Of a stretch of 64,000 nucleotides of DNA, positions 53,151 to 61,690 are shown in pieces. The position numbers were made by a program, and so were the translations under genes. This DNA comes from an uncultured Chloroflexia bacterium (GTDB lineage Bacteria > Chloroflexota > Anaerolineae > JAAYZQ01), in the NCBI GenBank assembly GCA_963700285.1, contig CAVOXA010000010.1:640001-704000 (forward strand), given 5' to 3'. The notes below the pieces were generated by a model, which was not told the origin of the DNA, searched no databases, and saw only the letters and a program-made list of their open reading frames with translations. How positions within the stretch are numbered: the first letter of the stretch is position 1; every line of letters begins with the position of its first letter.

Positions 53151-53594
53151 CTACTTTGCCTGCAGGCCAGGTTCGTAGACAAGGATGGCATCTCGCCAAG
53201 CGCCGGGCATGGGGATCGAGCCTTGTTGGGTATAGTCATAGCAGACCTGAATGGTCTTTCCGGTAGCAATCTCGCCACCCTCGGTTTCCAATACATACGC
53301 AAAGTGAAAGCTCTTGTTGCCCAGGTAACTGACACGCACCCAGACGGTCACTGTCTGTCCCAGATAAGCAGACGCTTTGTAGCTGCAGGAAGCATCCGCC
53401 ACGATCATGCCAATTGACTCAAAATCGTTGTCCTGCCACAAGCCTGCCTCGCGCAGGTACCTTACGCGGGCGTGTTCCATGAAGGTGAAATAGGCCACAT
53501 TATTGAGATGGCGCTGGGCATCGATGTCGGCGTAGCGGATGGGAATATCCACAGAACAACGGAATTGTTGGCGATCATACTCGTTGTCGGGCAT
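53151..53594 (-). CDS. Acyl-CoA thioesterase (YbgC/FadM hotdog fold)
   Basis: IRYADIDAQRHLNNVAYFTFMEHAR. Confidence 0.88.
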   Translation of the reverse strand: MPDNEYDRQQFRCSVDIPIRYADIDAQRHLNNVAYFTFMEHARVRYLREAGLWQDNDFESIGMIVADASCSYKASAYLGQTVTVWVRVSYLGNKSFHFAYVLETEGGEIATGKTIQVCYDYTQQGSIPMPGAWRDAILVYEPGLQAK

Positions 53595-53633: not shown

Positions 53634-54974
53634 CTAGGCGAGATCGTGTTTCTGGCAAAAGTCCTCGAGCACTTGTTCCAGGTCTGGCCGGCCGATCTCC
53701 TGCAGGTTGTAGTACACACGGGTTGACGGCTTGTCGATGTTGATAATGCGGCTCAGGTCAATGGGCGTACCGATAACTACGGCATCGCACTCGGTGGCGT
53801 TGATGGTTGCCTCCAGATCCCTGAGCTGCTGCTCGCCGTAGCCCATGGCCGGAAGCAGGACGCCGATGTTGGGGTAGGTCTCAAAGGTTTCCTTCAACCT
53901 GCCCACCGTATAGGGTCGCGGATCTACAAAGCCGGCCGCGCCAAACTTTTGGGCGGCAACCATGCCAGCCCCGAACTGCATTTCGCCATGGGTCAGGGTT
54001 GGCCCATCCTCGACCACAAGGACCTGCTTGCCTTTCACTACCGAGGGATCGTCCATGTCCAGCGTCGAGGCGGCATCCACCACGATGGCATCGGGATTCA
54101 CGGCGGCGATATTCTTGCGTACGGCGTCAATGCCGGCACGATCGGCGCTGTCCATCTTGTTGATGACCACCACGTCAGCCATGCGCAAGGTAATCTCACC
54201 GGGATAATAGGTCAGCTCGTGTCCGGGTCGGTGGGGATCGACAACGGTGACGTGCAGATCTGACTTGTAGAAAGGAAAGTCGTTGTTGCCGCCGTCCCAA
54301 ACGATTACGTCACAGCCGTCGGGATCGTTCTCCGCAGCCCGCAGGATGGCTTCATAGTCGACACCAGCGTAAATTACGTTGCCCCGCACGACGTGCGGCT
54401 CATACTCTTCCATCTCTTCGATGGTGCAATGGTGCCTGTCCAGATCCTCGATGGTGGCAAAACGCTGTACGCGCTGGGCAACCAAGTCACCGTAAGGCAT
54501 AGGGTGGCGGATAGCTACCACGTTAAGCCCCTTTGCCATCAGGAGTTCGATGATGCGGCGCGATGTCTGGCTCTTGCCGCTTCCTGTGCGCACAGCCCCC
54601 ACCGAGACGACCGGTTTTGTGCTTTCGATCTGGGTGTCCTTGGGCCCGAGCAGCAAGAAACTGGCGCCGGCTGCCTGGGCAATGGCGTTGACGGCCATCA
54701 CGTGCTGGTAGGGGATGTCGCTGTAGGAAAAGACACACTCGTCCACGTCAAGGTCTTGGATCAATTGTGGCAGGCTAGCTTCGGCGTGGATAGGGATGCC
54801 CTCTGGGTAGACCTTACCCGCCAGTTCCGGTGGATAGCGCCGGCCTTCGATGTCGGGGATCTGAGCCGCCGTGAAAGCCACAACGTTGTAGGCATTGTTG
54901 TCCCTGTAGTAGGTGTTAAAGTTATGAAAGTCCCGTCCAGCCGCGCCAAGAATGATGATATTTCTCTTGTCCAT
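53634..54974 (-). CDS. COG2403 P-loop protein (cDPG synthetase-like; arginine synthetase ArcE type)
   Basis: ILGAAGRDFHNFN, AVRTGSGKSQT, IRHPMPYG, EEMEEYEPH, WDGGNND, VEDGPTLTHG, LPAMGY; start ATG 54974 after GAGGAG. Confidence 0.8.
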   Translation of the reverse strand: MDKRNIIILGAAGRDFHNFNTYYRDNNAYNVVAFTAAQIPDIEGRRYPPELAGKVYPEGIPIHAEASLPQLIQDLDVDECVFSYSDIPYQHVMAVNAIAQAAGASFLLLGPKDTQIESTKPVVSVGAVRTGSGKSQTSRRIIELLMAKGLNVVAIRHPMPYGDLVAQRVQRFATIEDLDRHHCTIEEMEEYEPHVVRGNVIYAGVDYEAILRAAENDPDGCDVIVWDGGNNDFPFYKSDLHVTVVDPHRPGHELTYYPGEITLRMADVVVINKMDSADRAGIDAVRKNIAAVNPDAIVVDAASTLDMDDPSVVKGKQVLVVEDGPTLTHGEMQFGAGMVAAQKFGAAGFVDPRPYTVGRLKETFETYPNIGVLLPAMGYGEQQLRDLEATINATECDAVVIGTPIDLSRIINIDKPSTRVYYNLQEIGRPDLEQVLEDFCQKHDLA

Positions 54975-55047
54975 GTTCTCCTCTGCTTTGTCGAATTGGG
55001 GCCGCTCTGAGGAACCTGCGCCCCCAGCCAGATTTTCAGTTGAGCTT

Positions 55048-56190
55048 TTAGTAGCCCGGAAGCTGCTTGGGAAAGTAATCCTCCAGTATCCCCTCTCGGT
55101 AGACATCGGCCGTAGCGCAATGCAGGCCGCCGCCAAAGGCTCCCACATCCCAGAAGGGCACTGGGATGACCTCAAAACCTAGCTTGTCAAACTGCTCCAT
55201 CTGCGCTGTCTCGCTGGCTTCCACGCAGATGGTATTGGGATCGAGCATGAGGGTGTTCATCGATAGCCAGACACTGCAGTAACAGAGCGGCGGTTTCTTG
55301 TCAAGCGCAGGGGCTGCGCACTCGACAATCTCCCAATCGTTCTTTCTGAACAATTCTACCATCTCGTCGTAGAGCGGGGCGCGCTCGCGGTTGCTGAGGG
55401 CCAGTCCAGGCCGCAACAGCACAAAAGTCGCGTCAATATGTGTGGGATCGGGCTCACGGAATAGCACCTCGTGGATGCGGTGATTGGGAAAGTGACGGCG
55501 CAGCCATTCGATGCCTGCCGCGTTTGTGGTCAGGGATCGTTGGGCAAAAAGGTCCTTGCCGGCGCGCCCCACGTCAGCCGCGTCGAAGAGGGGTTCTTTT
55601 TCAGTGAGTGCCCACGATTTTTTGCAGGTATAGTCTCTTATCTGCTCTTCCGCTATCTTGGTCTCGAACTCTTGCCAAAAACCGAGGTTGTAGGAAGCGT
55701 CGCTCAGCCGGGGCTTGGGAGCCGATTCCCATCGAAAGTTAGGGTCCTCATCATAGTACTGCTGAAGGAGCGGCCGGTAGCAGAGGTATTCGAACCAACG
55801 GCTGCGGTAGGACATGGTTGCTTCCAAGATTTCGTTGCCCACCGTGAGCAATACGTCCCGGGGCGGCATACAGCCGCTCATCGAGTCCTGGACCCAGTCC
55901 GGGGTCTGTACTTTCTGACTGAAATCCAGCGGCGTGGGCCGGTCCACCCGGATCCCACGTTTCTGCAGCAAGGCTGCAAAGTTGTCCATCTGCTCATTGG
56001 CCCTATCTTCCATTTCCTGGGGCAGCAATCCATAGGTACCCAGGGGAAAGCCGTATTCGGGCCAGTCACGCTGAACCGCGGGCTCGGGCGCCTGGACCAT
56101 CGCCCCCGTAGCCACGCCGATAATGACGTGCTTGAGGGGGTCCCATTCGTTCCAAGAGTTCACCACTGTCGGGTTCTTTTCGGTTTTCAA
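55048..56190 (-). CDS. Amidinotransferase (glycine amidinotransferase/StrB family)
   Basis: NSWNEWDPL, PRDVLL, FDAAD (Asp), HIDAT (His), GGGLHCAT (Cys); TTG start after GGAGG. Confidence 0.92.
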   Translation of the reverse strand: MKTEKNPTVVNSWNEWDPLKHVIIGVATGAMVQAPEPAVQRDWPEYGFPLGTYGLLPQEMEDRANEQMDNFAALLQKRGIRVDRPTPLDFSQKVQTPDWVQDSMSGCMPPRDVLLTVGNEILEATMSYRSRWFEYLCYRPLLQQYYDEDPNFRWESAPKPRLSDASYNLGFWQEFETKIAEEQIRDYTCKKSWALTEKEPLFDAADVGRAGKDLFAQRSLTTNAAGIEWLRRHFPNHRIHEVLFREPDPTHIDATFVLLRPGLALSNRERAPLYDEMVELFRKNDWEIVECAAPALDKKPPLCYCSVWLSMNTLMLDPNTICVEASETAQMEQFDKLGFEVIPVPFWDVGAFGGGLHCATADVYREGILEDYFPKQLPGY

Positions 56191-56258
56191 GCTATCCTCC
56201 CAGAAGGGCCAGAAAGATGGTGGGCGCCCCAGACCGGCACAAGATCCAATTGTTCCCT

Positions 56259-56423
56259 ATCATGGATCAAGTCACGCATCCTGTCAAGTACTGGATGGTA
56301 TCAGCTACTGTGCCAAAGGGGCCCAAGGGATCTTTTTTCCCTGCGGGCACGGAGAGGGGCTCGATCTTGTTTTCAGAAGTGACCGAACTGGGACTTGACA
56401 GCCTACCCCCTATGAGCGATACT
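56259..56423. promoter_or_regulatory. Divergent promoter pair for the amidinotransferase and gabT
   Basis: Minus strand TTGACA-17-CATGAT (56287-56259); plus strand TTGACA-17-GATACT (56395-56423). Confidence 0.55.
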
Positions 56424-56566
56424 AGAGCAGCAGTGATTTGCTGGCTGTCCCTTGCACAGCCTGGAATGCGGAGTCCAAGAGATGTATTCTGTAGCGTTTC
56501 AGAGGCGTACGGGACTGCAATTGCAGATGCTGTCCCATCATTTGACCAAGTTGAGGAGGAGGAACG

Positions 56567-57836
56567 ATGAAGGATCCCAAGGAAAGTCTATGTCCTATCT
56601 TGAGCCACTACACGTCTATTGAGGTCGACCGGGGTGAGGGACCATACCTGTATGCGACCAATGGCCGTCGGTATCTGGATCTGACGACTGGCATCGGCGT
56701 AACCAACACCGGGCACTGCCATCCCCAAGTTGTGGCAGCCGCCCAGGCTCAGGTTGGCAAGCTGATCCATGGCCAGGCCAATATCGTCTACCACAAGCCG
56801 GCGTTAGAGCTGGTACAGGAGTTGCAGCAGATCCTGCCACCGCACCTGGATGGTTTCTTTTTCGCCAACTCCGGGGCGGAGGCCATCGAGGCAGCTATGA
56901 AACTGTCGCGACATGCCACGGGCCGGACCAATATGGTTGTCTTTCAGGGGGGATTCCACGGCAGGACCATCGGGTCCGTGTCTCTGACCACGTCGAATCC
57001 TATATACCATTACAAGTACCAACCTCTCATGTCGGGCGTGTACGTGGCGCCCTTTCCCTATAGCTATTACTATGGTTGGTCGGAGAAAGAGACTGAGGCC
57101 TTTTGTCTCAAGCAGTTGCGCCATTTGCTGGCCTCACAGACGGCGCCAGAAGAGACGGCAGCCATGCTCGTTGAGCCGGTGCTGGGCGAAGGCGGCTACG
57201 TCGTACCGACACCCGGCTTTCTTGCCAGCGTGCAGGGGATCTGCCGCGAGCACGGCATCCTGCTGATTGCGGATGAGGTTCAATCTGGATTCGGCCGTAC
57301 CGGAAAATGGTTCGCCCACCAGCACTTTGGGGTCGAGCCAGACATCGTAGTGATGGCCAAGGGTCTGGCCTCTGGTTTCCCGCTAAGCGGCATCGCGGCG
57401 CGGTCGGATCTGATGAGGCACTCGCCGGTCGGCTCCCAGGGAGGCACCTATGGCGGAAACGCGGTCGCCTGCGCGGCCGCGGTGGCGACCTTGCGCGTGT
57501 TGGGGGAGGAAGGCTTGATCGAGAACAGCGCAAGGATGGGAGCCAAGCTTGATGAATCAGCTCAAGGCGCTGCAGGAACAGTTTCCCGTCATTGGTGAGG
57601 TGCGCGGCCTTGGCCTGATGGTGGGCGTCGAGTTCACCTCGGCAGACGGCAGTCCGGATTCGGCAACGGCTAAAGCAGTGGTGAAAGTATGTCTGGATGA
57701 GGGTCTGATCTTGCTTACTTGCGGTACCTATGGCAACGTGATCCGCTGGATCCCGCCTCTGATTATCAATGATTCTCAACTGGATGAGGCATTGAGTATT
57801 TTCGCAGGGGCCCTGAATGCAGTCGTAGCCGTTTAG
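56567..57836 (+). CDS. gabT: Class III aminotransferase, 4-aminobutyrate aminotransferase-like; one frameshift near 57549
   Basis: NSGAEAIEAA, FHGRT, EPVLGEGG, ADEVQSGFGRTG, MAKG, GGTYGGN; the C-terminus (VRGLGLMVGVE, IRWIPPL) is in another frame. Confidence 0.8.
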
Positions 57837-57959
57837 CCTGCGTCCTTTTGAGGTGATAGAACCTGGTGGGAGCACAGTGCGCGTCTTTCTCGTGCTCCCA
57901 TCGAGAGAACGCCGCTGGCCCAAGATCCAGAGGCGCCGCACTTGAGGTGAAATGGGACA

Positions 57960-59213
57960 TTGACGATATTCAATCTAGCCTACGGCGACACGCAATTGGA
58001 TGTAGATATGCCAAGCGCCAACGTGCTGGGGGTGCTTGAGCCCCTGAGCAGCGGACCACCGCGGGACGAAGCGGAAGTGGTGCGACTCGCTCTCGCTCAG
58101 CCCATCGGCTGCCCCTGTCTGCGGGATCTGGTGCGTGCTGGACAACGCGTGGCAGTCATTACCAGTGACCTGACGCGCCCCTGCCCGTCGGAACGGCTAC
58201 TTCCCTTCCTATTGGACGAGCTGGCAGAGGCTGGCATCCGGGATGAGGACATGACCATCGTCCTGGCCCTGGGCCTCCACAGGCCAATGACGGAGCCAGA
58301 GATTATGGCGGCAGTAGGACCGGCTGTCTACCAGCGCGTACGGGTGCTCAATCACGATCCGGCGGATGTCATCCGGCTGAGCATTACCTCACGGGGTACT
58401 CCTATCGATGTCTTTCGTGCGGTGGTGGAAGCCGATGTGCGCATCTGTGCTGGGAACCTGGAACTGCACTATTTTGCCGGCTACTCTGGCGGGGCCAAGG
58501 CGATTCTGCCTGGCTGCGCCTCCAAGGCGACGATCCAGGCAAATCACGCCATGATGGTCATGCCGGAGGCATGCGCCGGGCGTCTGGACGGTAACCCAGT
58601 TCGCGCGGATCTAGAAGAGGGGGCGGCGATGGTGGGGATAGACTTTATCCTCAACGTTGTGGTGGACAGCGAGCATCGCATCGTAGCCGCAGTTGCGGGC
58701 GAGGTGACTGCTGCCCACCGGCGGGGGTGTGAACTGGTGGCGGAGCAAGGGATTGTACCCGTGGCTGAGCTGGCTGACATCGTGCTGGCCAGCGCTGGCG
58801 GATTCCCAAAAGACGTGAACTTGTACCAGGCGCAGAAGGGGCTGGACAACGCGGCCCACGCCGTACGGCATGGGGGAGCCATCGTCCTGGTGGCGGAATG
58901 CCGCGAGGGCCTGGGTAATGCCACCTTTGAGGCCTGGTTGCGGGAGGCAAGCTCACCGGATGAAGTGCTGGAACGAATCCAGAAGGAGTTTGTCCTGGGT
59001 GGTCACAAGGCGGCGGCTGTAGCTTCCGTGCTGAAGAAGGCGGATGTCTGCTTGGTCTCCTCCATGCCGGCGGACTTGGTCAAAAGCTGTGGATTGATCT
59101 CCTTTGATGACGTCCATCAGGCCGTACGGTCCGTGCTTGACCGGCAGGGAGAATCTGCTCGTGTCCTTGTCATGCCACAAGCGGGATCTGTTTTGCCGGT
59201 TCAGACTGTCTAG
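57960..59213 (+). CDS. larA: LarA-superfamily nickel-pincer racemase/epimerase
   Basis: SDLTRP, ALGLHR, HYFAGYSGGAK, GGFPKDVNLYQAQK; substrate uncertain. Confidence 0.85.
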   Translation: MTIFNLAYGDTQLDVDMPSANVLGVLEPLSSGPPRDEAEVVRLALAQPIGCPCLRDLVRAGQRVAVITSDLTRPCPSERLLPFLLDELAEAGIRDEDMTIVLALGLHRPMTEPEIMAAVGPAVYQRVRVLNHDPADVIRLSITSRGTPIDVFRAVVEADVRICAGNLELHYFAGYSGGAKAILPGCASKATIQANHAMMVMPEACAGRLDGNPVRADLEEGAAMVGIDFILNVVVDSEHRIVAAVAGEVTAAHRRGCELVAEQGIVPVAELADIVLASAGGFPKDVNLYQAQKGLDNAAHAVRHGGAIVLVAECREGLGNATFEAWLREASSPDEVLERIQKEFVLGGHKAAAVASVLKKADVCLVSSMPADLVKSCGLISFDDVHQAVRSVLDRQGESARVLVMPQAGSVLPVQTV

Positions 59214-59325: not shown

Positions 59326-59402
59326 CGGGGCGTAGCGCAGTCCGGTAGCGCACTTGAATGGGGTTCAAGTGGTCGCCCGTTCAAATCGGGCCGCCCCGAC
59401 CA
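59326..59402 (+). tRNA. tRNA-Pro(GGG)
   Basis: CGGGGCG acceptor stem, CTTGA-ATGGGGT-TCAAG anticodon arm, GTTCAAATC, encoded CCA. Confidence 0.95.
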
Positions 59403-59562
59403 CGAAGAAGATGGTCGATGGCGTGTTGCTGTCGGCCATTGCTTTATCCCGAGCACGGTCCCTCCGTGCCCTGCGAGTGGAGATAGCGTCGTCGAAGCAG
59501 AGATGCAGACAGCTTCGTCATGGACGAGACCTGGCTGGCGCTTTCTCGGAGTTGAGAAGCAG

Positions 59563-61066
59563 ATGGACAGCGTTGTTCATGCATGTGAGGATCTAACAGA
59601 AGAGGATATCGCGTTTCTGGAAGAGATCGAGGGGAACCTGGGCATCCTGGCTGACTCTGAGCCGGGCCGACGTCGCTCATGTATTGCCCTCTCGACGCTG
59701 AACGAGCGGTGGTGGTGGCCCAAGCCAGGCCTCACTCGATCCTGCCCATCTACAGCGAGTCGCTGGTTGGGCGGCAGGTAGGCTTTGCCGACGAGCCTGA
59801 CGTGATGCGGGCGCTGACGGAGGGCCGCCGGGGCTTCACCGAGGTTCGCCGTGGCGATGGCAGGCGGCAGTCTCCAGCCAAGGGAGCGCCTATCGTTCAG
59901 GAGACCTATCCGATCTGGGACGACGATGGGCAGGTGATTGCGGCGATCTGCATCGAGACGAACCTGATCGAGCGGGAGCGCCACCGGCGTCGCAGCAAGG
60001 TCTTTCAGCGAGCGCTGAAGCAGTTTCAGCGCGATGGTGTTGGCCGGGCAGTTGCAGGGCGCCGACCAATTGACGCCCTTTGCCGAGCACGATGGCGTCA
60101 TGGTCGTGGATGCCCAGCATCGCATCCAGTACGTCAGCGGCATTGCCACCAGCCTCTACCGCAAGCTGGGCTACGTCGGCGACCTGCTGAAGCGGCACAT
60201 CGAGGATCTGGAACTGGATGATCAGCAGCCTGGTCCTCGAGGCCCTGGAACAGGGCGACTGCTATCGAGCGCGAGATACAGGTCGGCGATCTGGTCTGGG
60301 TCAAGAAGGCGATCCCCTGTTTGCTCCCGCGCAAGGGGCTGCGCCGGCTGCTCACGCCAGGCGATAGGCGCCCTGGCGGCTGGAGGGCGCTCTGGTGACC
60401 ATCCACGACGAGACCGACGCCCGCCGCCAGGAGGAGGAGCTCCAGGTCAAGGTGGCCATGATCCAGGAGATCCATCACCGGGTCAAGAACAACATGCAGA
60501 CCATCGCCTCGCTGCTGCGGCTCCAGTCGCGCCGGGCCGAGTCGGAAGAGGTCCGGCGGGCGCTGCAGGAGGGCATCAACCGCATCCTGAGCGTGGCCGT
60601 GATCCACGAGTTCCTGGCCCACCAGGATGCCCGGGTCATCAACATCCGGGATGTGAGCCAGCGGATCATCAACCAGATCCGGGAAGGGGTGCTGGATCAG
60701 GAGAGGGGGATCCGCCTGGACTTGCGCGGTCCCAACATCTACCTGCCCACCCAGCCAGCCACCGTCTGCGCTCTGGTGATCAACGAGTTGCTGCAGAATG
60801 CGCTGGAGCATGGCTACGAGCGCCAGGAAGGTGGTACCGTCACCGTCAACCTGCAGGACGATGGCGAGCAGATCACCATCTCGGTGGACGACGATGGAGT
60901 GGGGCTGCCAGAGGACTTTGACCTGGCACAGACCAGCAGCCTGGGCCTGCAGATCGTCCAGACCCTGGCCGAAGGTGATCTCAAAGGCAGTTTTGAGCTT
61001 CACGGCAGGGACAAGGGCGTCTCGGCTGTCGTAACGTTCCCCAAACACAGCCAAGGAGGTAAGTAA
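59563..61066 (+). CDS. Cytoplasmic PdtaS/EutW-like histidine kinase; several frameshifts as sequenced
   Basis: N-terminal GILAD...VVVAQARP, PAS-like DGVMVVD, HisKA_2 QEIHHRVKNNMQ, NELLQNALEH, DDGVGLP, SLGLQIV. Confidence 0.85.
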
Positions 61067-61669
61067 TGGCAGAGCGGACACGAGTAATCATTGCCGATGA
61101 CGAATCCATCATTCGCATGGACCTGCGCGAGATGCTGACCAACCTGGGCTACCTGGTCGTCGGCGAGGTGGGCGATGGGCGGAGCGCGGTCAACCTGGCC
61201 CGCGAGCTCAAGCCCGACGTCGTGGTCATGGACATCAAGTTTGAGGGAGACGAGTTTGATGGCATCGACGCTGCCCGCATCCTGACCGAAGAGAAGATCG
61301 CCCCGGTGCTGCTTCTGACAGCGTACAGCCAGCGGGAGTTGGTGGTGCGGGCCAGGGAGGCGGGGGTGGTCGGCTACCTGGTCAAACCTTTCCGCGAGGC
61401 GGACCTGGTCCCGGCCATCGAGGTGGCGCTGGCGCGCTTTGACGAGTTCCAGGCCATGGAAAAGCAGGTTGGCGACCTGGAAGAGGCCCTGGAGACCCGC
61501 AAGTTTGTGGATCGGGCCAAGGGCATCCTGATGGACTCGCAGGAGCTTGACCGAGGCCGAGGCCTTTCGCAGGATCCAGAAGATGAGCATGAACACCCGC
61601 AAGCCGATGAAGGATGTGGCCGAGGCCATCATCCTGGCCCACCAGACCCAACAACAATCGGTTTTCTAG
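61066..61669 (+). CDS. ANTAR-domain response regulator (PdtaR/EutV-like); frameshift near 61548
   Basis: IADDESIIRMDL, LLTAYSQ, YLVKPF, ETRKFVDRAKGILM, then EAEAFRRIQKMSMNTRKPMKDVAEAI in another frame. Confidence 0.88.
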
Positions 61670-61690
61670 CGTGCTGTCAGTAGGCATGTC

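Follow-up and report, generated by a model that had tools for sequence, protein, structure and literature searches.

Thermococcus kodakarensis breaks down arginine by the ArcE-ArcB-ArcC pathway (PMC11032458; PMC13260591). The ArcE reaction (-6.8 kJ/mol) and the steps of ornithine carbamoyltransferase (OTC) and carbamate kinase together give two ATP per arginine (PMC11032458). Imported arginine is the fuel and ornithine is the product. Here we describe an amidinotransferase (AT) gene that lies immediately upstream of an ArcE-like gene in a 64,000-nucleotide stretch of DNA (the window) from an uncultured Chloroflexia bacterium (assembly GCA_963700285.1, contig CAVOXA010000010.1). The system to which these genes may belong resembles that of T. 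kodakarensis in its ArcE family member with an LpxK-like fold match, in OTC and carbamate kinase, and in a predicted two ATP per amidino group. The difference is that the AT would turn ornithine into a carrier that is recycled, and would broaden the fuel to other guanidino compounds.

The described amidinotransferases of EC 2.1.4.- (AGAT, AmtA, CyrA/AoaA, SxtG, StrB1 and HsvA) serve biosynthesis, whereas the clade of the window AT is found in catabolic-looking operons. Transfer by AmtA is reversible, a trait shared across the EC 2.1.4.- family, and in vitro AmtA converts homoarginine and ornithine to arginine and lysine (PMC4887976). An AT can thus load ornithine from a donor other than arginine.

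The agmatine deiminase pathway consists of AguA, putrescine carbamoyltransferase and carbamate kinase, and the ureohydrolase routes use agmatinase or guanidinobutyrase. Both hydrolyse the guanidino group and yield one ATP or none; judged by these ATP yields, most of the energy is lost. The shuttle proposed here has the same likely substrates and amine products, and agmatinase genes are often found nearby. Compared with the agmatine deiminase pathway it would give two ATP, with OTC in place of putrescine carbamoyltransferase. The non-arginine guanidino routes described in the available text of PMC12623156 proceed by hydrolysis to urea or carbamoyl compounds, and the word 'amidino' does not occur in that of PMC13260591. 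No paper coupling an AT to ArcE was found in the searched literature, from which most subscription journals and figures S2B, S10 and S11 of PMC11032458 were missing. In the same literature 'amidinotransferase' together with 'arginine synthetase' or 'diphosphoglycerate synth' matched no paper.

The pairing of AT and ArcE is far beyond chance, and its most likely role is to open the arginine synthetase pathway described in 2024 to guanidino compounds besides arginine. A sequence-only reading of the locus had suggested ATP-yielding guanidino catabolism. This idea gains strength from related operons, in which OTC, carbamate kinase, importers and genes of amine catabolism are found in addition. The hand-off to GabT fared less well, and a role of the neighbouring larA gene in the pathway has no support.

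The amidinotransferase and its ArcE-like partner

The sequence-only reading had recognized an amidinotransferase with an intact catalytic triad, 73 nt upstream of and co-oriented with a protein that it labelled COG2403 (we take the label from it) and that carries the motif GAAGRDFHNFN. Each of these details holds. The gap has the length claimed, the motif occupies residues 10-20, and D203/H251/C358 of the AT align with Asp254/His303/Cys407 of human AGAT. The AT matches human AGAT (1jdw) with 288 bits (phmmer, E 1.4e-84). Its best matches among solved structures are human AGAT, HsvA, SxtG and StrB1, although identity to known amidinotransferases is only 36-40%. AGAT residues Asp170, Asp305, Arg322 and Ser355, which we take to be those of the arginine/ornithine site, are all kept (D112, D253, R270 and S306). 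The predicted structure (pLDDT 95.9) has a Foldseek TM of 0.87-0.88 to AGAT versus 0.53-0.58 to arginine deiminase (ADI)/DDAH, and of 0.82-0.88 across the solved amidinotransferases. By sequence and modelled fold the protein is an amidinotransferase of the AGAT/HsvA/StrB1 family, and its predicted activity is that of a donor:ornithine amidinotransferase.

The window AT departs from AGAT at the 300-flap, which reads EPDPTH against DPNPMH in AGAT, with D248/T250 replacing Asn300/Met302. The glycine enzyme CyrA departs from AGAT there as well, so the flap cannot name the acceptor. Naming the donor from flap residues was rejected too, because the residues vary by AT subclade and glycine enzymes differ among themselves. 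No fusion of AT to ArcE or to OTC was found among 17 longer AT homologs, which is weak evidence. Three proteins of 1064-1080 aa (P0414-P0416) join the window-type AT clade to a GT2 glycosyltransferase.

The ArcE-like protein has a P-loop (TGSGKS) and is the sole copy in the genome (G000; 7.05 Mb, 89% complete), where tblastn gave a single match. An alternative frame with a TTG start would encode 513 aa and run into the AT gene. It is not likely to mark the start, and the ATG at 54974 is preferred. No Pfam or NCBIfam family matched the protein except for a weak match to CobW. A homolog in Thermoflexus hugenholtzii shares 62% identity with it over 435 aa (572 bits), and Thermoflexus is named among the ArcE-carrying genera in PMC11032458. 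The supplement of that paper defines ArcE by a BLASTP E<1e-100 to TK2200 and a length >380 aa. The predicted structure (pLDDT 92) matches LpxK 4EHY (E 1e-8), the structure matched to TK2200 in PMC11032458.

NCBI names of the close homologs, which are from Anaerolineae, read 'cyclic 2,3-diphosphoglycerate synthase' (cDPGS). If these names were correct, the protein would be a cDPG synthetase unrelated to the AT. This is effectively refuted. Similarity to the solved cDPG synthetase is not full-length and amounts to 33.6 bits over ~100 residues (222-325 only); the modelled structure has 14% identity and a TM of 0.45 to cDPGS 8ORU. The combination of an LpxK-like P-loop fold with weak cDPGS similarity is that of ArcE. 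So is the association with arcB and arcC, since the nearest clade has OTC-carbamate kinase-ArcE operons and G000 has both genes in trans. One relative (P0127) is a 766-aa fusion of a carbamate-kinase-like domain to ArcE. On both sequence and model the protein is not a cDPG synthetase, and the earlier placement with ArcE stands.

A tree of 147 sequences (without TK2200 and cDPGS, and rooted on a divergent representative) places the window protein in a 37-leaf clade of AT-linked proteins and proteins from OTC-carbamate kinase-ArcE operons, apart from the class-typical copies. ArcE is common in the class (52/61). We defined 172 columns as conserved in >=95% of 99 homologs without an AT in the fetched locus, 26 of which had 1.5-kb flanks only. 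The window protein and a 14-member AT-linked set retain all 172, so arginine is the likely substrate. The protein is likely an ATP-forming arginine deiminase/arginine synthetase that acts on arginine.

A change of specificity would instead let ArcE deiminate a non-arginine guanidine directly with ATP formation, for example agmatine to N-carbamoylputrescine. The window subclade is indeed distinct, with 86-92% identity in three relatives versus 58-66% to class-typical ArcE. ArcE also co-occurs with arginine deiminase in G000 and in 3 of 11 linked genomes; among class genomes that have the ordinary ArcE, 2 of 43 show this. The co-occurrence of the two enzymes in one genome is called exceptional in PMC11032458. 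We set this enrichment aside as support because the counts are small and non-independent; no match exceeds the TIGR01078 cut-off. The absence of any AT-linked substitution at the 172 columns argues against altered specificity, as do the partner carbamoyltransferases, which are OTCs and not putrescine carbamoyltransferases, and the rejection of agmatine by TK2200 (PMC11032458). Such a change is very improbable.

Conservation of the pairing and its partner genes

The neighbourhood survey found ArcE on the same strand within 4 kb downstream of the AT at 10 of 80 genome loci. These are ten of the 27 informative loci from outside Pseudomonadota (7 of 34 were too short), and none of the 46 Pseudomonadota loci is linked. 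The phyla are Chloroflexota, Desulfobacterota, Acidobacteriota, Actinomycetota and, from one bin on a short contig, Bacteroidota. In an even sample of the class the AT clade is rare, being carried by five of 300 other genomes. Three of the five have a co-oriented ArcE within ~7 kb; of the others, G011 is unlinked and G377 is on a short contig. It is this rarity together with this linkage that places the pairing far beyond chance.

Where the first AT of a genome is unlinked, nine of ten window-type ArcE copies were fetched. Seven of these nine have a different AT paralog, 39-73% identical to the window AT, at a distance of at most ~6 kb, and in the remaining two the contig ends too soon. With G000 and G013 included, the pairing is conserved in 22 genomes from several phyla and in four metagenome contigs, although related genomes and horizontal operon transfer mean that all linkage counts overstate independence, which lowers their weight as evidence. 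The linked ATs span at least five subclades in a 63-sequence tree (FastTree, with most Pseudomonadota rows omitted). Their full-length ArcE partners form one clade, except for that of L190. Two genomes (G064 and G072) have an AT-type ArcE plus an ordinary ArcE. The AT of L050 had no match in 250 sampled genomes of its phylum.

OTC lies between AT and ArcE in five of the ten linked loci and carbamate kinase in two of the ten. All five operon carbamoyltransferases are above the cut-off of the arcB-type model PRK04284, and all five score 288-298 against a cut-off of 500 for the putrescine carbamoyltransferase model TIGR04384. Because they pass the OTC models and fail the putrescine model, the carrier is taken to be ornithine. 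Carbamate kinase is present in 9 of 11 linked genomes searched (seven above cut-off). In G000 OTC and carbamate kinase, both above cut-off, lie away from the window (G000:C1:203760-206029), so the enzymes that the sequence-only reading needed to recycle ornithine are available. The genome also has argG, in three pieces, and in argG-bearing genomes ArcE is expected to be catabolic (PMC11032458). The surrounding region (G000:C1:192058-207351; L001, L002) contains two arcA, OTC, carbamate kinase and DcuC/NhaC-type transporters. A second, distant amidinotransferase (35%) is found at G000:C5:68555-69598 (L003:8535-11790); the genes after it encode a DDAH/ADI-like protein and an M20 peptidase.

Related ATs often have amine-catabolic genes as neighbours. 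A class-III aminotransferase lies within 6 kb at 7 of 10 linked versus 3 of 17 unlinked loci, and true GabT is part of the operon in L050, L052 and L084. In a Desulfosarcina metagenome-assembled genome (MAG; L087:5821-8985) a putrescine aminotransferase (above cut-off) is fused to an aldehyde:ferredoxin oxidoreductase (AOR) and diverges from the AT; a polyamine-type ABC transporter is also present. In the sister group of the window AT, L079 has an SSADH-like and a GabT-like gene; L067 and L082 have genes for an omega-aminotransferase, an alanine dehydrogenase and an AOR, to which L067 adds a ureohydrolase and a polyamine-type ABC transporter. Creatininase occurs in L058, L222 and L224, which belong to a different AT subclade from the window's. 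A true ornithine aminotransferase is found near the L057 operon. Importers (ABC, SSF, TRAP) stand next to or within several operons.

Other members of the AT clade have different surroundings. ATs of 75-79% identity in L210 (G007:C8) and L212 (G011:C3) lie amid MttB-family methyltransferases, corrinoid proteins and a URO-D-like methyltransferase, a context that suggests demethylation of N-methylated guanidines before amidino transfer. In L085 a dimethylamine methyltransferase follows the AT immediately. In SAR11 (L098-L127, Pelagibacteraceae) the clade occurs without ArcE, in many loci behind a creatinase-like M24 hydrolase. ArcE is also lacking in L077-L096 (Photobacterium, Vibrio, Parendozoicomonas), where a sodium:solute symporter is found in Photobacterium and glycine-reductase genes in L090. 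An Anaerolineaceae MAG has three tandem divergent amidinotransferases between ABC and ECF transporters (L071:10013-13630) and a fourth AT inside an AT-OTC-ArcE operon (L229).

Divergent genes and surroundings of the locus

The features of the locus are listed in Table 1. The sequence-only reading had described a divergent region shared by AT-ArcE, a GabT-like aminotransferase and a LarA-family gene. The arrangement is confirmed, with an intergenic region of 376 nt (56191-56566) between AT and the aminotransferase that holds one sigma70-like site in each direction, both with a perfect TTGACA. The assignment to GabT is not. Against the TIGR00700 (GabT) cut-off of 506.65 the intact ortholog of the same-genus genome G001 scores 403.7, and the two window pieces 308 and 87. 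The best match of the G001 ortholog is PRK08117 (535, cut-off 574). By the curated cut-off the window enzyme is GabT-like and not GabT. In G007 the aminotransferase also lies divergent from an OTC-ArcE pair without an AT, and the hand-off of the freed amino acid to GabT is weakened as a result.

Table 1. Coordinates of features in and around the AT-ArcE locus (window positions)
Feature	Position	Strand	Remarks
Hot-dog acyl-CoA thioesterase	53151-53594	-	39 nt 3' of ArcE; position kept in G001 and G007
ArcE-like gene	53634-54974	-	446 aa; ATG preceded by AGAGGAG
AT/ArcE spacer	54975-55047	-	73 nt; carries the ArcE ribosome-binding site
Amidinotransferase (AT) gene	55048-56190	-	380 aa; TTG start preceded by GGGAGGA
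Sigma70-like promoter match, TTGACA-17-CATGAT	56259-56287	-	Towards AT-ArcE; consensus match only
Sigma70-like promoter match, TTGACA-17-GATACT	56395-56423	+	Towards aminotransferase; consensus match only
Class-III PLP aminotransferase	56567-57836	+	Pieces 56567-57598 and 57549-57836; nearest PRK08117
LarAH6-family nickel-pincer racemase (malate racemase model)	57960-59213	+	NF052593 533 bits, cut-off 500

One extra base near 57550 breaks the reading frame of the aminotransferase gene. This base is missing from G001 and from a related-strain contig of run X4, and the assembly holds many other one-base indels (argG is one of the genes in pieces). For these reasons the frameshift is probably an assembly artefact. 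The genome contains a larC match above cut-off. LarA occurs close to the AT at three of 80 loci, none of which is ArcE-linked; larA was accordingly rejected as a pathway member and is probably incidental.

No terminator-like site was called within the AT/ArcE spacer, and AT and ArcE may be co-transcribed. Short contigs of RNA run X9 are identical to 55017-55276 and 58047-58242, but they were discounted as evidence of expression because DNA carry-over is uncontrolled. Between 50000 and 62000 no RNA family or riboswitch was found besides one tRNA. This is a tRNA-Pro(GGG) at 59326-59402, directly after larA. A histidine kinase gene with several one-base indels and a response regulator follow (59503-61683).

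A proposed amidino shuttle

We consider it fairly probable that AT and ArcE-OTC-carbamate kinase form a closed catabolic cycle with up to two ATP and regeneration of ornithine. AT would transfer the amidino group of a donor to ornithine, giving the amine and arginine. ArcE would convert arginine, ADP and Pi to citrulline, NH3 and ATP. OTC would split citrulline to ornithine and carbamoyl phosphate, from which carbamate kinase would form the second ATP. The net reaction would be R-NH-C(=NH)NH2 + 2 ADP + 2 Pi -> R-NH2 + CO2 + 2 NH3 + 2 ATP. In G000 the distant OTC and carbamate kinase would serve in trans, and the freed amine would pass to an omega-aminotransferase and an aldehyde oxidoreductase. 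Judging from the neighbours, the chance that the donor of the window AT is a C4 compound (agmatine and 4-guanidinobutyrate taken together) is slightly better than even. Guanidinoacetate from creatinine fits another AT subclade better than the window's. HsvA is a polyamine amidinotransferase according to the title of its PDB entry.

Several observations weigh against a closed cycle. Among 80 metagenome ArcE loci, which have 68-81% identity and in many cases are short, only four show an AT, and plain OTC-carbamate kinase-ArcE operons, of which there are several, fall in the same ArcE clade. The AT is therefore an addition to a standard ArcE module. Conversely, among further genomes with the AT clade, ArcE was undetected in 6 of 18 MAGs of anaerobe lineages and in 5 of 5 from Pseudomonadota. 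Genes for a transporter, OTC or carbamate kinase are absent from the window locus. G001 retains ArcE and the aminotransferase, but its AT has lost roughly residues 61-345; the relic before ArcE (L211:9351-9695) has an internal deletion of ~285 codons. In G007 OTC occupies the AT position, and the aminotransferase is divergent from OTC-ArcE with no AT at that locus. The state of G001 and G007 may reflect differential loss from an aminotransferase/AT-OTC-ArcE locus like L076, or the AT may be dispensable. The two arginine deiminases beside OTC and carbamate kinase in G000 mean that ArcE is not required there and is not the sole arginine sink; they could consume the arginine instead, for one ATP. 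A Trp aligns with AGAT Arg322 in the linked AT subclade of L190, L230, L231 and L234. Two contexts look biosynthetic, namely that of L233, where a methyltransferase gene separates AT from carbamate kinase, and that of the three close ATs fused to glycosyltransferase. Lastly, all four reactions of the shuttle are reversible.

Some of these points would fit a loose co-location, in which ArcE is an ordinary catabolic enzyme and the AT an optional salvage enzyme (for arginine or nitrogen from guanidino compounds, or for ornithine from arginine) with no closed ATP cycle. The aminotransferase may then serve ornithine instead of the freed amine. The retention of the remaining locus in G001 and G007 favours this, as do the single ArcE of G000, the commonness of ArcE in the class, the ornithine aminotransferase near L057 and the success of the AT clade without ArcE in SAR11 and Photobacterium. 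However, distinct AT subclades have been recruited repeatedly to the same OTC-carbamate kinase-ArcE operon, and G064 and G072 hold a second, AT-type ArcE in addition to the ordinary enzyme; both observations point to coupling. Loose co-location is unlikely.

The cycle might also run in reverse, with carbamate kinase, OTC and ArcE consuming ATP to charge ornithine anew with CO2 and ammonia. AT would pass the amidino group to an acceptor and form a guanidino product, for example guanidinoacetate, creatine or an osmolyte. The characterised bacterial ATs are biosynthetic (PMC2242806, PMC4887976) and ArcE works in both directions in vitro and in vivo (PMC11032458), and the L233 methyltransferase and the glycosyltransferase fusions agree with such a role. 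Against it, importers, hydrolases, aminotransferases and aldehyde oxidoreductases make up most of the neighbours, the operon OTCs are arcB-type and G000 has argG. Moreover, carbamate kinase was unable to supply carbamoyl phosphate for growth of T. kodakarensis (PMC13260591). A biosynthetic direction seems quite unlikely.

The catabolic shuttle is thus the reading we favour. More broadly, the chances are about even that interchangeable ATs with their own importers feed one ArcE-OTC-carbamate kinase engine in anaerobic sediment bacteria. With ornithine as a catalytic carrier, such a modular cycle would draw on agmatine, guanidinobutyrate, guanidinoacetate derived from creatinine, and further guanidines, and would gain two ATP for each amidino group. 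It would be a loop like that of the urea cycle, reversed for energy.

If true, this would be a new route of substrate-level phosphorylation and, within the searched literature, the first catabolic role for bacterial amidinotransferases. It would provide a function for a rare AT clade and for many proteins misnamed cDPG synthase. It would also offer anaerobes in soils and sediments a way to release ammonia from agmatine, creatinine and similar compounds.

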